The notes under the pieces are model-generated. The model was given only the letters and a program-made list of their open reading frames with translations, was not told the DNA's origin and did no database searches. Positions 3,001 through 43,431 of a stretch of DNA of 64,000 bases are shown in pieces (the stretch's first letter is position 1; each line of letters opens with the position of its first letter). The stretch lies in NCBI GenBank assembly GCA_016218025.1, contig JACRFD010000077.1:797-64796 (forward strand). Reading direction: 5' to 3'. The stretch comes from Ignavibacteriales bacterium. GTDB lineage: Bacteria > Bacteroidota > Ignavibacteria > UBA10030 > SZUA-254. The position numbers were made by a program, and so were the translations under genes.

Positions 3001-3902
3001 AACAACAAAATGTAACCATCAATCCTACATTGATATGGAATTGCACTTTCGATGCTTCAACTTATCACCTGCAAGTTTCTAGAACTTCAGATTTTTCAGA
3101 AGATAATTTAATTGTAGATCGGCCTACACTTACAACTACTTCCTATCAACTCTCAAATCTTGCTTATTCATTTACATATTACTGGCGGATATCAGCAATA
3201 AATGAATCAGGTGAAAGCAATCCATCACCAACTTGGTCATTTACAACAATTCCGAATCCATTTCCTGCACCTTATTTATCCGGAATAAGAATCGCAGACG
3301 GAACGGTTTATCATCCGAAGTTAACATGGAGTACGGTCAGCGGTGCGGTTTCTTATGTACTCTATCGATATCAATGCGGCAGTACAGATGATTGCGACGA
3401 CGGTATTGACCAATCTTACGAAATCGTTTATCAAGGCACAGCATTAACATATACAGATCATTCGGTTGCAACCGTTGCAAAAGCAGGCAACGGTTCGGTT
3501 TGGTATATCGTAAGAGCTAAGAATAGTGCTAATGCATTAAGCGCAAGATCAAATCACAAAGGATTTTTCGTTTACTATGATATTGTTGATAAGAATGGCA
3601 CCAGAGAAGGCGAATTACCAACTAAAACAAAATTAGAAGCGAGTTATCCAAATCCATTCAATCCCATAACTACAATCCGATATCAACTTGCAGAGTCAGG
3701 TTATATTACTTTAGCTATATATAACGAACTTGGACAGGAGGTTGAAAAACTTGCTGGTGGATATCAGGAAGCAGGTTATTATGAACGAATCTGGGATGCA
3801 AAGAATAACCCGAGCGGCAGTTATTTTATTCGATTATTGATCACTGATGAAAATGGTAAAGCCCTTTACCTGAAGACAGAAAAAATTGTTGTGATGAAAT
3901 AA
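1..3902 (+). CDS. Large secreted surface protein with T9SS C-terminal sorting domain; 5' end probably lies outside the window
   Basis: ORF 42..3902. The same frame has no stop from nt 3 to 42, and the GTG-start product has no signal peptide. GADIWYTLDGTMPDSS...IKARAYKIG resembles a chitobiase/hexosaminidase C-terminal (Fn3-associated) domain. Two Fn3-like segments lie near the C-terminus. The tail SYPNPFNPITTIRYQL...IVVMK is T9SS-type. Confidence 0.7.
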   Translation, partial: FDIACVDQYSVSLVSQLNPSNFLGDKLKSNNVYFSGSTSYDVNNHSFPKLYAPSKWLSSSSIIHLDSTTFPVRNENSLMKYSFNMAEVIHSPGEVGLAILSDLGWPVNRIITPISPFGGEILRKGSTYNIRWSDSKGGGLILKLLRKGTDGNYFQIKNVCDTLINSNIGRNEYSWTVDTLVDDGDFKIKFLDETFGYGLSNTFTIITQVATPQFSPPEGQFDSSLYVKISCSTQGADIWYTLDGTMPDSSKYKYTDSIWVTFSKTIKARAYKIGSQQSNIAEAKYYIGQGIGTLDTTGPLSVNNSKGVVNSSRGINSTSCSVGNIYYYGEYAPVRCFLEWNLTNIVPIGAKIISARFETAASDYELPPTIKIYHVNVDFSKDTTLWSASNNGTLLENNVYLSWGFSKSYDSASTFVTKLEQSLLDQKFQLEFVSEQETYDGSYIAINASQTRLSIVYKLPIRTVTIKNNLDGAFTIDSIKVNGIQYPSPYTNSYPYDTELTIEATLKKLNYLSDNWKFRQWNDGSGQYSKNITIKDQYEYTANFDKVYNLTLKNDMEGIESGQLIYEGNTIPSGYTDFDVFINRSRTVNAITPQTYAGVTWNFYGWSDGVDSIARHITVTSTQEYKAKYKGHLISQTSSATKLSSQRKIVIEGDKKYAVYESGGMIFFIYDLGAGWSNEFRVGYSTSAKNPSITSDANYVYVVWDEGTPDDKHYVMMSKFFKNGIPVPFSCEPIMTGINTKSDDYVTPVVCDVLNGICPLGTFGPAIIWREKTDLYSELLLSIYNRFSNPHVYYRIATNAKQPSLIRFNDQYLVVYVNSAGQIEYQKFKINSIGEMTDQTTSILLSGSYTDCSNPSITTNSDGRIFVAWDGLNGSTRHVFVKECDASGTWLTTSEFTHGTHSLSSPSIGVDKQTLKVNVVFECGDHLARKSRLLSSSTWYTLCDMCQGYGPAVSFFEDDPYTPTYPTTYFTSGTSQPYSIISNVLGSIPATPIQSTPANEQQNVTINPTLIWNCTFDASTYHLQVSRTSDFSEDNLIVDRPTLTTTSYQLSNLAYSFTYYWRISAINESGESNPSPTWSFTTIPNPFPAPYLSGIRIADGTVYHPKLTWSTVSGAVSYVLYRYQCGSTDDCDDGIDQSYEIVYQGTALTYTDHSVATVAKAGNGSVWYIVRAKNSANALSARSNHKGFFVYYDIVDKNGTREGELPTKTKLEASYPNPFNPITTIRYQLAESGYITLAIYNELGQEVEKLAGGYQEAGYYERIWDAKNNPSGSYFIRLLITDENGKALYLKTEKIVVMK

Positions 3903-39913: not shown

Positions 39914-40204
39914 AAGAATTTTGATAAGAAATGTAAAAACTTATCCAATAATAACCATTTTTGAAAACTTTTGCAAAAACTGATAAATAAGTATTATTTA
40001 ATAATCATATCTAATATTTTTTGAGATGAGTATGTAGAAACAAAGGAATAATTTGATGTAGAATATTAGCCAGTTGGTTCAATATATCAAGTCAATCGAA
40101 GCATAGAAAACAGGAAACTATAAAATCAATAAATATTTGCCAATTACTAAGTGAACAATATTGGTATGGAACTTGTAATATTATAATTACTCCTTAAAAT
40201 ATTT

Positions 40205-40250
40205 GTGGATTAGTGATTGAACCCCGGACGAACAGCCGGGGTTTTATTTT
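40205..40250 (+). terminator. Orphan terminator-like unit 1 (GTGGATTAG + hairpin + T-run)
   Basis: gtggattag at 40205-40213; aaccccgg (40220-27) pairs with ccggggtt (40236-43); followed by ttatttt. Confidence 0.45.
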
Positions 40251-40335
40251 ATACACAGGTAAACGTGTGAAAATAATCACACTGCGGTTGCACACGCTCT
40301 TTACAAATATTAAATTAAAACAGATTAGTTAATTG

Positions 40336-40380
40336 GTGGATTAGAGAAAACCTCAACAAAAAAAGTTGGGGTTTTTTATT
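40336..40380 (+). terminator. Orphan terminator-like unit 2 (GTGGATTAG + hairpin + T-run)
   Basis: gtggattag at 40336-40344; aaaacctcaac (40347-57) pairs with gttggggtttt (40365-75) with one G-U pair; a T-run follows. Confidence 0.45.
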
Positions 40381-40493
40381 TTAAGTAAAACAATAACATC
40401 TACTCCGGATTTTCAATTTTTTGATTCCTTACCACATTATTTGTATATTTGATACGGTCTTTTATAAAGCTGTGTAAAATGTAGATTTTTCTT

Positions 40494-40569
40494 GGGGCTG
40501 TAGCTCAGTTGGGAGAGCGCCTCGTTCGCAACGAGGAGGTCGTCGGTTCGATCCCGATCAGCTCCACCA
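40494..40569 (+). tRNA. tRNA-Ala (anticodon CGC), CCA encoded
   Basis: 76 nt. Acceptor GGGGCTG/CAGCTCC with the G3:U70 alanine identity pair. D arm GCTCAGTTGGGAGAGC, anticodon arm CCTCG-TTCGCAA-CGAGG, T arm GTCGG-TTCGATC-CCGAT, then ACCA. Confidence 0.9.
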
Positions 40570-40588
40570 ATATTTTTTAGATTAAACC

Positions 40589-40867
40589 ATGTATTTTGTA
40601 TACATCTTACAAAGTGAGAAAGATGGTTCACTGTATACTGGTCAGACAATCAATCTTATTGATAGAATTAAAAGGCACAATCAAGGTTTGATAAAAACGA
40701 CTAAAACAAAAAGACCATTCCGTCTCGGATATTATGAGATATATGGTTCGAGATCAGAAGCAATGTATCGTGAATGGCAATTTAAGAAGCAATGGAATAC
40801 TGAACGGAAAAAAAGATTGATCGCCGATTTCGACCAAGCAAAGATTAAAGAAGTATTAGGGCTGTAG
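40589..40867 (+). CDS. Small GIY-YIG nuclease family protein (UPF0213/YhbQ-like, 92 aa)
   Basis: YFVYILQSEKDGSLYTGQTINLIDRIKRHNQG...PFRLGYYE...A..RE..KK matches the GIY-YIG core (Y-Y, R, E). It starts 20 nt after tRNA-Ala, and its last three codons and stop lie inside the second tRNA-Ala copy. Confidence 0.8.
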   Translation: MYFVYILQSEKDGSLYTGQTINLIDRIKRHNQGLIKTTKTKRPFRLGYYEIYGSRSEAMYREWQFKKQWNTERKKRLIADFDQAKIKEVLGL

Positions 40868-40980
40868 CTCAGCTGGTCTACGACTCTACGATCAACGATC
40901 CCGTAGGGAGTCGTAGACTCGTAGAGGAGAGCGCCTCGTTCGCAACGAGGAGGTCGTCGGTTCGATCCCGATCAGTTCCA
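40858..40980 (+). pseudogene. Second tRNA-Ala(CGC) copy disrupted by a 50-nt palindromic insertion in the D-loop
   Basis: Outside 40877-40926 it matches the first copy at 70/73 positions. The differences are G1->A (creating an A1-C72 mismatch), T16->C and C69->T. It is followed by ACA rather than CCA. Confidence 0.6.
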
Positions 40981-41056
40981 CAGAATGTATGGTATCTGTT
41001 CTGCGCCAGAGGCGCATCCGCCTTCCGCCATTAAAATCGGCGGACAGGTTGGCGGA

Positions 41057-41074
41057 GATCCCGATCAGCTCCAC
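41057..41074 (+). repeat. Third, partial copy of the tRNA-Ala 3' end
   Basis: gatcccgatcagctccac is identical to 40550-40567 of the intact tRNA (T-loop 3' part, T-stem, acceptor 3' strand, discriminator). Confidence 0.7.
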
Positions 41075-41077
41075 TTC

Positions 41078-41203
41078 CAATCCGACATAACTTAACAATC
41101 CCGCAGAGCGGGAGCGGTTAAGTTATAAGTCGGATTGAGAATCCCTGCTTGCCGGTTAATTGCAAGCAGCAGGCAAGCCGCCGAAGTGAAACGAAGGCGG
41201 GAT
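41078..41203. other. GC-rich cluster of stable hairpins of unknown function
   Basis: Hairpin 41078-41137: caatccgac-ataacttaac...gttaagttat-aa-gtcggattg with an inner tcccgc/gcggga stem. Domain 41141-41203 is closed by atccc/gggat and contains ctgcttgc/gcaagcag and ccgcc/ggcgg stems. Confidence 0.4.
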
Positions 41204-41316
41204 AAAAAGTTCTTAGTGAGTAGTTAATTGTGAGTCTGATTATTAAACGCTCACAAATCTACCAATCACAAGTAAGTCGATCAACCACTATTCCGTACTT
41301 CAATCACCTTCATCGA

Positions 41317-43431
41317 ATGAATAATACAAATAAATCCAATCGTCTCATCAACGAAAAAAGTCCGTACCTCCTTCAGCACGCGCACAATCCCGTAGATTGG
41401 TATCCTTGGGGAGATGAAGCATTTCAAAAAGCCCGCGATGAAAACAAACCGATTTTCGTATCGATAGGTTATTCAACCTGTTATTGGTGCCATGTTATGG
41501 AGCGGGAAGTATTTGAAAATGAAACTATCGCTCAAATAATGAACGAGAAAATGATCAACATAAAAGTCGACCGTGAGGAGCGCCCCGATGTTGACCGCGT
41601 TTATATGAGTGCGCTTATTGCCACCACCGGACAAGGCGGCTGGCCCATGTCGGTTTTTCTTACTCATGATCTGAAACCTTTCTATGCCGCAACATATATT
41701 CGTCCAATCGAACATCACGGCAAGCCGGGATTTTCTGATCTGGTAAAACGCATCAGTGAACTTTGGATAAACGAGCAAAATAAAATAATTTCAACCAGCG
41801 ACCAGATCACTGAACATCTGAAACAATTGTCAAAACCGGATCATGAAATCATTATTAATGAATCGAATATTAGTAAAGCATATCAAAAATTTTTAGAGAG
41901 TTACGATTCACAATATTGCGGGTTTGGCAATGCGCCAAAATTCCCAAGACCTTCTGTGTTTAATTTTCTATTAAGATATTTTAAACAAACCGGCAATGGC
42001 TCATCGCTTAAAATAGTTCTCAACACCCTCCGAGCAATGGCACGCGGCGGCATGTACGATCAGCTTGGCGGCGGCTTTCATCGCTATTCAGTTGATGAGC
42101 AATGGCGTGTTCCTCATTTCGAAAAAATGCTTTACGATCAGGCACAACTTGCTATTTCATATTTAGAAACGTATCAGATTACGAAAGACGATACGCTGAT
42201 TGAAACCACAAAAGGTATTTTAGATTATGTGCTGATAAAACTTCATCATAAAGATGGCGGATTTTATTCCGCAGAAGACGCAGAGAGTGTTACTGATTCA
42301 TCTAAACCGAACGAAAAAGAAGAAGGTGCTTTTTATGTTTGGACAAAATATGAAATCGATTTGCTTCTCGGAAAAGAAAATGGAGAAATCTTTCATTTTA
42401 ATTTCGGGCTTGAAGATGAAGGAAACGCTCTCGAAGACCACCTGAATGTTTTTTATGAACAGAACATCCCATACGTTGCTCATAACATTGAGGAGACTGC
42501 ACAGAAGTTTGGAAAAACACCTGATGAATTGAAGCAACTCATACTTGCAACAAAACATAAATTATATCTCGAACGCGAGAAACGTCCGCATCCGCATCTT
42601 GACGATAAAATAATAACGGCTTGGAACGGGTTGATGATCTCGGCTTATGCCAAAGCATACCGGTGTCTTGAGTATGATATTTACCGAGATACTGCAGAGA
42701 GCGCTGCACAATTCATAATGAAAAATCTTTACAATCCACAAACTCAAACTCTTTATCGTCGTTACCGCGACGGTGATGCCCGCTTCGATGGCGGCTTGCA
42801 GGATTATGCTTTTATGATTCAAGGATTGATTGATCTTTATGAAACAACTTTCGATTTCCAATGGCTTGAATACGCAATATCGTTGACAGAAAAACAGATT
42901 GAATTATTTTGGGATAAAGAGTCGGGCGGATTTTTCGACACAACCGGAAACGATCCATCAATTATTTTAAGAACAAAAGAAGATTACGATGGCGCCGAAC
43001 CGACAGGCAATTCCATTGCCGCGTTGAATCTCCTAAAACTTTCACAAATAATCAATAGCAACAATTGGCGCGAGATGGCAGAAAAAACTATGCAATCGTT
43101 TGGAGCACGCCTGACTCAAATGCCGGAAGCGTTGCCACAAATGTTAGCAGCGTTAAATTGGAATCTATCAACTCCGAAGGAAATAATTATAGTCGGTAAT
43201 CGAAATGCAGAAGACACTAAAATAATGTTAAGAGAAATCGGTAAACATTTCCTGCCGAATAAAATCATCCTGCTTGTAGATGACGATTCGAAATCGAAGT
43301 TAGTCGCCTATCTGCCGTTCATCGAAAATATGACGATGATAGACGGTAAAGCAACAGCTTATATTTGTCAGAATTATAGCTGTCAACTGCCGACGAATGA
43401 TATTGAAAAAGTTGCTGAGAAGTTGGGGTAA
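41317..43431 (+). CDS. Thioredoxin-domain protein of the YyaL/SSP411 (DUF255) family
   Basis: [43 protein letters not shown], and a C-terminal (alpha/alpha)6-barrel-like region. The ATG at 41317 is preferred over the GTG at 41230 used in the ORF track. Confidence 0.85.

Follow-up and report, generated by a model that had tools for sequence, protein, structure and literature searches.

A small GIY-YIG nuclease gene between tRNA-Ala copies in Ignavibacteria probably belongs to a homing-type cassette family of structured-RNA genes

What is a gene for a small GIY-YIG nuclease doing between two copies of the same tRNA gene? The question is raised by a 64,000-nucleotide (nt) stretch of an Ignavibacteriales bacterium genome (GenBank assembly GCA_016218025.1, contig JACRFD010000077.1, positions 797 to 64,796 of the forward strand), hereafter called the window. 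On its plus strand an intact tRNA-Ala(CGC) gene at 40494-40569 is followed by an open reading frame (ORF) for a GIY-YIG protein of 92 amino acids (aa) at 40589-40867 and by a second tRNA-Ala copy at 40858-40981, in which the stop codon of the ORF is embedded. A preliminary description of this stretch, made from the sequence alone, had weighed a selfish element that targets tRNA genes against a stable passenger of tRNA transcription units. We propose, with a probability of about 0.65, that the gene is part of a homing-type selfish cassette residing in structured-RNA genes, which carries a replacement segment for the gene it enters and leaves the original segment behind as a displaced copy.

Loci with related nuclease genes were fetched from genome assemblies (23 loci) and from metagenomes (27 loci). 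The close homologues make up about 41 loci (L001-L019 and L022 from genomes, L024-L044 from metagenomes), all from metagenome-assembled genomes of Ignavibacteria/Bacteroidota or from metagenomes. In every one of these the ORF directly abuts or overlaps, on the same strand, a gene for tRNA-Ala(CGC), tRNA-Ala(GGC) or the signal recognition particle (SRP) RNA. The association of small GIY-YIG genes with tRNA genes, which the preliminary description had mentioned, is thus real and very strong, and SRP RNA is a second target that this description had missed. Alignment of the flanks to the intact RNA revealed a common plan, in which a segment of the RNA gene is directly repeated on both sides of the ORF. 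One of the two repeats belongs to an intact gene, so that nothing is lost to the host, and the other is a partial, displaced copy. The ends of the ORF often fall inside the RNA gene, with the stop codon at tRNA nt 8-10 or nt 29-31 or the start codon at an ATG in the anticodon loop, and many of the homologues end in ...LGL, which is the translated 5' end of the tRNA. Displaced copies mostly have the same sequence as the intact gene next to them, including lineage-specific variants of the SRP RNA. As judged from these loci, the arrangement is a trait of the family and not a local accident.

The plan is realized in several layouts. In type A, nt 1 to ~31 of tRNA-Ala precede the ORF and a full tRNA follows it, with the stop codon at tRNA nt 8-10 (L001-L004, L010, L012, L013, L025-L029, L039-L041, L044); where the GGC isoacceptor is used, the start codon can be the anticodon-loop ATG (L001, L012, L026). 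In type B, a full tRNA-Ala(GGC) precedes the ORF and a segment from about nt 20-29 to nt 74 follows it, the stop codon TGA being nt 29-31 (L005, L011, L014, L018, L031, L036, L038). In the SRP type, a full SRP RNA (Rfam RF00169) is followed by the ORF and then by the 3' part of the SRP RNA with its terminator (L006-L009, L015-L017, L019, L030, L032-L035, L037, L042). The window layout, a full tRNA, the ORF and a nearly whole second tRNA, is shared with L043 and L024. The latter encodes the closest protein (80% identity), has at least three tandem units and shares with the window the downstream gene for a 733-aa protein; the former retains the window layout, but its ORF is dead. Nucleotides 1-27 are common to the CGC and GGC isoacceptors. 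In related loci where tRNA-Ala(CGC) and the SRP RNA gene ffs lie together, the cassette is found on either side of the tRNA or downstream of ffs, and the remaining positions are empty.

The association reaches beyond the close homologues. Six of the seven more distant proteins that were looked up (~47-64% identity) are encoded in other tRNA genes with displaced copies, namely between tRNA-Val and tRNA-Asp with pseudo-Val pieces (L051), in tRNA-Tyr (L054), in tRNA-Pro (L056, L064, L068) and in tRNA-Asp (L065). The seventh (L069) lies by a tRNA-like 3' fragment and is a candidate only. Homologues below ~46% identity had no tRNA nearby.

The system turns over, as far as these genomes reveal it. 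L013 and L041 are 99.5% identical over 4.3 kb, and the sole gap between them is one 17-nt unit at the centre of a palindromic module of the kind described below. Likewise, the flanks of L014 are 99% identical to those of L036 and L038, and these loci differ by an extra tandem partial unit. Tandem ORF arrays are present in L002, L011, L024, L026, L036, L038 and L068, frameshifted or truncated ORFs in L017-L019, L022, L043, L044 and possibly L010, and in L006, L007, L015 and L022 tRNA-Ala is preceded by solo 5' tRNA fragments with hairpins. The target changes as well: the protein tree does not separate cassettes on the CGC isoacceptor from those on the GGC isoacceptor, while those of the SRP type form a group.

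Further rearrangements were seen at individual loci. Upstream of an intact tRNA-Ala, L007 has three tandem 105-nt repeats (2474-2790), each composed of tRNA-Ala nt 1-17 and two unrelated hairpins; there is no ORF between these repeats and the tRNA, and the cassette lies downstream, after ffs. The displaced SRP copy of L017 (1018-1115) stands beside a degenerate cassette, 1.9 kb from the intact ffs (3299-3387), and matches the SRP RNA of L015 at 70/72 positions, that of L008 at 70/75 and its own at 66/73, which makes it closer to the SRP RNA of other lineages. At L024:1184-1700, the third tandem ORF copy is broken after ~8 codons by an insert of ~480 nt, which has direct repeats of ~45 nt at both ends and a 105-aa ORF inside.

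The nature of the protein was examined by sequence and structure comparison. Residues 1-71 of the 92-aa product match the Pfam GIY-YIG family (PF01541) with 65.2 bits (cut-off 22.6, E 6.8e-18), and the catalytic residues Y5 (VYI), Y16 (YTG), R26, H30, E62 (the metal-binding Glu) and N70 are invariant or nearly so in two family alignments. An AlphaFold2 model with a predicted local distance difference test score of 94.4 has strands at residues 2-9, 15-20 and 44-52, which form the three-stranded GIY-YIG sheet, together with helices. Foldseek returned GIY-YIG structures only, among which UPF0213 1zg2 (BH0048) and Slx1 chains had a probability of 1.0 and I-TevI an E value of 0.45; a profile search of the PDB gave 1zg2 at E 4e-13 and 1ywl at E 6e-9. 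The best matches in both sequence and fold are therefore BH0048 and EF2693 of UPF0213 and the nuclease domain of Slx1, with the I-TevI catalytic domain far weaker. Neither Pfam nor the model contained a second or DNA-binding domain, and searches of PADLOC and PHROGs gave no meaningful match. By sequence and predicted fold, the protein belongs to the Slx1/UPF0213 branch and is not of the I-TevI type; the preliminary description, which had likened it to homing endonucleases, did not hold in this respect. Within the family, the ratio of non-synonymous to synonymous substitution rates (dN/dS) is 0.05-0.12, indicative of strong purifying selection; between the window and L024, which is syntenic with it, synonymous sites have reached saturation. 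The conserved catalytic residues and the low dN/dS suggest that the gene makes a working nuclease of the structure-specific branch rather than a homing enzyme of the classical, long-site kind. Substrates of the Slx1 nuclease domain are branched and stem-loop DNAs, including stem-loops, flaps and junctions.

As a separate observation on this gene, the first 38 nt of the window ORF (40589-40626) match the first nucleotides of the tRNA-Val cassette ORF (L051:1606-1643) at 37/38 positions, while the two proteins are 64% identical. This match may reflect recombination or a constraint on the nucleotide sequence at the 5' end.

The same data bear on the second possibility raised at the outset, that of a domesticated or stable passenger. 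The gene would then be a long-resident host gene, co-transcribed with the tRNA or SRP RNA, whose product serves the host, for instance by processing DNA hairpins or R-loops where RNA genes are heavily transcribed, or by acting directly on the RNAs; repeats and modules would be by-products of its activity on nearby hairpin-forming DNA. Such residence is consistent with the purifying selection and the synonymous saturation, with a fold typical of structure-specific repair nucleases and with the lack of viral copies reported below. It is likewise consistent with the fusion of an Slx1-like domain to a tRNA G18 methyltransferase, which a 2006 survey of the GIY-YIG superfamily describes and which its authors take as suggesting a role in RNA metabolism (PMC1564403). 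However, position and target vary among related genomes, and the gene is missing from equivalent sites of related tRNA-ffs loci. Tandem arrays, frameshifted or truncated copies and solo remnants are common, and the protein tree mixes cassettes from different isoacceptors. We thus hold residence as a host gene to be unlikely. The variable insertion architecture, the arrays, degenerate ORFs and solo remnants, and the differences between near-identical genomes are better accommodated by a selfish element.

A further property of the cassettes is that their displaced copies are interrupted by palindromic modules. The 50-nt insertion in the D-loop of the second tRNA copy of the window is one of these, a relationship that had gone unrecognized in the preliminary description. 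The unit is 16 nt long with the consensus S-YCTACGR-S-TCGTAGA. In the common 32-nt module, one unit is split at its centre by a second, oppositely oriented one. Tandem units and modules of 48 and 64 nt were seen as well, and the window insert amounts to 16 + 16 + 18 nt. Over all displaced copies, 25/46 inserts are exact multiples of 16 nt in length and 31/46 are within 1 nt of a multiple, these being counts over non-independent loci. The palindromic sequence of the window insert recurs at this D-loop position, G18/G19, in ~15 loci (L001-L004, L010, L012, L013, L024, L025, L027-L029, L031, L043). The insert sites in tRNAs are after nt 6, 18, 33 and 48-52, and those in SRP RNA after nt 34, 46/47, 59-63 and 84, where 46/47 lies in the GGAA apical loop and 84 at a bulge. 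A census of the 7-mers of the unit, which included the rest of the 64-kb window, found them within ~100 nt of the ORFs and elsewhere as scattered chance singletons. A genome-wide repeat of the REP/RAYT type or a miniature inverted-repeat transposable element was accordingly rejected, as the 7-mers were confined to the neighbourhood of the ORFs in the 64 kb of the window genome. A 17-mer of the module had one match in the viral contigs, by chance and inside a coding region (L063).

The modules appear to be under constraint. L002 and L004 differ at a third of their synonymous sites (dS 0.33), yet a 64-nt displaced copy with its module is identical in the two, and this identity argues that the module is constrained. 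The outer arms of the module are almost invariant among proteins that are 55-65% identical. Another lineage has a different module, TCCCGAT(N4-5)ATCGGGA, which was found only beside the cassettes L051, L052 and L068, on two different tRNAs, and which takes the place of an anticodon arm or T arm of equal length (17 nt). The type of module hence follows the protein lineage and not the target. We infer that the modules are not neutral scars but a part of the cassette that has a function or is templated by its mechanism. Their number varies with the length of the displaced copy, those of ~31 and 46 nt having one module site, those of 55 nt two and those of 72-75 nt usually two or three; the longer copies have more sites, and the uninterrupted segments are mostly 14-26 nt.

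Two simple descriptions of the modules were tried and rejected. A nested-hairpin fold of the 32-nt module is matched by nested compensatory changes in L010 and L012, but these changes are interleaved in L028 and L043. A strict target duplication of 1 nt fits many sites but not all, as the T-arm insert of L014 is 31 nt long. In all nine single 16-nt units (e.g. L016:3323-3338), base 1 is complementary to base 9 and the orientation relative to transcription is the same; the first 9 nt form a mini-palindrome (GCC-TAC-GGC, CCC-TAC-GGG) that is followed by the invariant TCGTAGA.

How the cassette may be expressed can be read from the window. Upstream of the tRNA, a promoter-like site on the plus strand at 40421-40451 includes a sigma-70-like match, TTGATT-17-TATATT, at 40421-40449, and by eye it can also be read as TTTG-N20-TATATTTG, the Bacteroidota-type -33/-7 pattern. 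No promoter-like site was found between the tRNA and the ORF, nor any terminator-like site on the plus strand from 40378 to 41350. Given the lack of both, the tRNA, the ORF and the displaced copy are plausibly co-transcribed as one transcript.

We propose the following course for the homing cassette. The ORF is probably expressed by read-through from the promoter of the RNA gene. In transcripts whose stop codon is part of a real tRNA, processing by RNase P would cut that codon off and would thereby keep nuclease levels low. The nuclease, whose recognition target is probably a DNA hairpin or cruciform and not a long sequence, would break a cassette-free copy of the RNA gene, and recombinational repair from a cassette-bearing copy would bring in the cassette together with the replacement gene segment. 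The palindromic units would arise by a local, nuclease-dependent process, mainly at hairpin tips. They would persist because uncut repeats would recombine and delete the cassette cleanly, whereas the units cut the repeat homology into stretches that, at the loci with the heaviest modification, measure at most ~25 nt. A further effect of the units may be the loss of nuclease sites from the spare copy.

A more specific version of the origin of the units is that the nuclease opens hairpin tips in the spare copy and grafts palindromic units of 15-16 nt there, with the apparent duplication of a flanking nucleotide. We put this forward tentatively, as a conjecture with some chance of being right; if it were, no mobile DNA units smaller than these would be known. 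A stronger form of the conjecture is that the hairpin array and the target-identical segments program the choice of target by the nuclease.

Taken on its own, the idea of programmed specificity holds that the displaced copy punctuated by modules, as transcribed target-identical pieces between hairpins that bind the protein or as an equivalent DNA structure, directs the nuclease to the matching RNA gene. It would account for the clear target fidelity of a 92-aa nuclease without a DNA-binding domain, and it would agree with the ~100% identity of the displaced segments to the adjacent intact gene, including lineage-specific SRP variants. The 14-24-nt segments between conserved hairpins in L016, L018, L019 and L031 and a module type that tracks the protein lineage rather than the target are in line with it too. 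On the other hand, the target-identical pieces between modules are only 6-11 nt in L068 and L051, many loci have a single module, and the intact gene in the same cell would be a target too. We also know of no RNA-guided enzyme of such size or fold. Programming of this kind therefore seems quite improbable.

Several observations weigh against the homing cassette itself. The argument from broken homology is weakened by long uninterrupted stretches that have been kept in the window (56 nt, 49 of them identical), L030 (64 nt) and L017 (52 nt). By sequence and model, the protein is a single domain without the DNA-binding domain that classical homing endonucleases need. The intact RNA gene in a carrier genome retains any site that lies within the RNA gene, which is a problem for self-immunity. 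The purifying selection, together with the synonymous saturation between the window and L024, also fits a long-resident and possibly domesticated gene. A protein profile search of viral collections (2.9 million viral contigs) returned no copies, so that no vector is evident. In the comparison among close relatives that the preliminary description had proposed, other positions are empty in related tRNA-Ala(CGC)-ffs loci, as described above, but no filled and empty pair was found in near-identical genomes. Synteny gave no such comparison either, as the loci of the closest GrpE homologues (71-77% identity; L057-L062) are without tRNA-Ala beside grpE. The counts across loci are phylogenetically non-independent, and it is from sequences that we infer cleavage and homing by the cassette nuclease.

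The second tRNA copy of the window can now be considered in detail. The intact tRNA-Ala, the ORF and its stop codon are placed as in the preliminary description. The tRNA at 40494-40569 (plus strand; D-loop CAGTTGG) is called by ARAGORN, scores 67 bits with the Rfam tRNA model and folds into a clean cloverleaf with G3:U70. The ORF starts 19 nt past its end, and the final codons GGG CTG TAG are nt 2-10 of the second copy, TAG being nt 8-10. A spliced alignment to the first copy resolved the second, on the plus strand, into nt 1-18 (40858-40875), an insert of 50 nt at G18/G19 (40876-40925, with 40877-40926 equally valid as the boundary is ambiguous by 1 nt) and nt 19-74 (40926-40981). The 50-nt D-loop insertion reported earlier was thus confirmed, as was the near-identity of the two copies, for which the earlier figure of 70/73 becomes 71/73 over nt 2-74. 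The differences are A at nt 1, C at nt 16, which gives the D-loop variant CAGCTGG also found in most type A cassette loci, and T at nt 69, which gives a G4.U69 wobble. The insert is made of two nested 16-nt units (G-TCTACGA-C-...-TCGTAGA and C-TCTACGA-...-G-TCGTAGA) and an inner 18-nt unit, TCAACGATCCCGTAGGGA. The mismatched first pair noted before was borne out (A1.C72), but the missing CCA is no sign of decay, since an encoded CCA is also missing from nearly all intact tRNA-Ala genes read in related loci.

Running ARAGORN on the locus, as had been suggested, returned the intact tRNA-Ala and also a second call at 40907-40981 (37.8 bits with Rfam) that is an artefact. There the 3' half of the insert serves as a false acceptor and D arm, and the G3:U70 pair is lost. 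As it stands, the copy has its D-loop interrupted by the module between G18 and G19/G20, and 1-72 is unpaired. When the 50 nt were removed by hand, the copy was called as a normal tRNA-Ala cloverleaf that keeps G3:U70, an outcome that the preliminary description had listed as counting against its reading, although with the A1.C72 mismatch and the G4.U69 wobble. This fold would suit an intron-like role, in which the module is removed from the RNA, the copy is a second working tRNA-Ala and the nuclease is the enzyme of excision or homing. So would the frequent placement of inserts in loops (D-loop, anticodon loop, T-loop and the SRP GGAA tetraloop) and the common orientation of all single 16-nt units relative to transcription. 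However, the copy that bears the module is mostly a truncated piece (nt 1-31, nt 29-74 or the SRP 3' part), so that no functional RNA would result even after excision. Some inserts split stems and some replace whole arms, the window copy has the A1.C72 mismatch, no Rfam intron family matched at E <= 1, and a ribozyme would need far more than 16-50 nt. We consider an intron-like role very improbable. If the window has a homing cassette, the upstream tRNA is the working gene and the second copy is the spare with one three-unit module in the D-loop.

A third piece of the tRNA lies downstream. An exact copy of tRNA nt 57-74, comprising the 3' part of the T-loop, the 3' strand of the T-stem and the 3' strand of the acceptor, occupies 41057-41074 on the plus strand; the 18/18 identity reported before was reproduced, and the fragment agrees with the first copy (C69) and not with the second. 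It is preceded by GC-rich hairpins at 41002-41056 on the plus strand, read from the sequence as TGCGCC-AGA-GGCGCA (41002-41016) and TCCGCC...GGCGGA (41017-41056), at the place where an older displaced tRNA copy would have its anticodon arm and the 5' strand side of its T arm. These hairpins are of the arm-replacing kind. The arrangement is kept in L043, which has a homologous nt 57-74 fragment, and unrelated hairpins take the place of arms also in L054, L064, L065 and L068. The fragment and the hairpins are read as the remnant of an older displaced 3' copy, left by an older event, and as such fit the pattern of the cassettes, a point not made in the preliminary description. That description had pointed to duplicated tRNA 3' ends as the usual footprint of site-specific integration. 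Although duplicated tRNA 3' ends like this one are typical of integrase insertion, the proposal that the repeats are att-type remnants, or a decaying plain tandem duplicate, with the nuclease as an unrelated neighbour is barely conceivable and the att footprint is effectively refuted by the comparative data: the layout of the ORF within repeats recurs in ~41 loci and in distant relatives with ORF ends inside the repeats, the repeats include 5' parts (nt 1-31), whole tRNAs and SRP RNA, there is no recombinase gene among the ORFs neighbouring the window repeats, and the modules are conserved and cassette-specific.

A full-text literature search found no description of such a cassette system in bacteria, and cassettes in bacterial tRNA and SRP-RNA genes are apparently an undescribed family. 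The closest known analogues each share one feature with it and none shares the whole. The Seg GIY-YIG endonucleases of T4-like phages, such as SegB in a tRNA cluster, are encoded by intron-free genes among tRNA genes and spread by double-strand-break repair with co-conversion of flanks, to which the cassette may be likened. SegB is reported to drive tandem amplification of tRNA loci (PMC13096335), which parallels the tandem arrays of cassettes. Yet the Seg enzymes are ~200-250 aa long, have DNA-binding domains and are phage-borne, in contrast to the chromosomal, Slx1/UPF0213-like protein of 92 aa, and they have no gene-restoring partial duplicate of the target and no palindromic modules.

The logic of intact and displaced copies is the same in mobile ORFs of fungal mitochondria (the Allomyces atp6 element and elements in Glomeromycota), where an endonuclease ORF brings a substitute gene end and the original is left as a pseudogene. 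Fungal mitochondrial genomes also have mobile palindromic GC clusters. However, the hosts there are protein-coding organellar genes, not bacterial ones, the enzymes are LAGLIDADG or multi-domain GIY-YIG proteins, RNA genes are not targets, and there are no quantised 16-nt modules restricted to the displaced copy. Tyrosine-integrase islands in tRNA and tmRNA genes likewise keep a conserved RNA-gene target intact by means of a carried copy and leave partial direct repeats, but they use a recombinase, duplicate the 3' part only and are kilobases long, whereas the cassette has no integrase, duplicates 5' parts as well and measures ~0.4 kb.

Short palindromic units that are tied to a single nuclease or transposase gene and inserted into one another are known from REP/RAYT systems and from tiny nested palindromes of cyanobacteria. 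These are dispersed genome-wide, and RAYTs are HUH enzymes; the 16-nt units of the cassette, in contrast, are strictly local to the displaced RNA-gene copy beside a GIY-YIG gene. We know of no precedent for quantised palindromic modules. The UPF0213 proteins (BH0048, EF2693 and E. coli YhbQ) and the Slx1 domain share with the cassette protein the single GIY-YIG domain of ~90 aa and are its best matches. We know of no report of a function, of linkage to RNA genes or of a repeat architecture for UPF0213 proteins, and Slx1, unlike the cassette protein, needs Slx4 and a RING domain.

Single-domain nucleases like UPF0213 and Slx1 abound in bacteria, and for about twenty years no role has been assigned to them; one clade of them now gains a concrete context that can be tested. 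If the homing cassette is real, the invasion of a gene with a carried replacement part extends to tRNA and SRP-RNA genes of bacterial chromosomes and to a cassette of 0.4 kb. The nested units, quantised at 16 nt and limited to the spare copy, are a sharply defined DNA signature and point to a novel mechanism of insertion or repair. There is also a practical consequence, in that cassette loci mislead tRNA finders, as at 40907-40981, and fragments of pseudo-tRNA and pseudo-SRP RNA enter annotations.

The window locus is flanked by grpE/dnaJ and the gene for the 733-aa protein. An Rfam scan of the region found tRNA only, the weak upstream matches to small RNAs being terminator hairpins. Between grpE and the tRNA promoter, two similar modules of ~80 nt ('tggattag...') lie at 40169-40250 and 40300-40380 on the plus strand; each is closed by a strong intrinsic terminator, and they may be tandem small-RNA genes. 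Downstream of the third tRNA fragment, a long hairpin at 41078-41137 has the arms ATCCGAC/GTCGGAT, an arm motif that it shares with hairpins beside the L011 cassette. A second hairpin at ~41141-41175 loosely resembles domain IV of SRP RNA (AATCCCTGC..CCGG..GCAAGCAGC); it had no match in Rfam, and by this resemblance it may be left over from a tRNA-Ala-ffs pairing such as relatives have.

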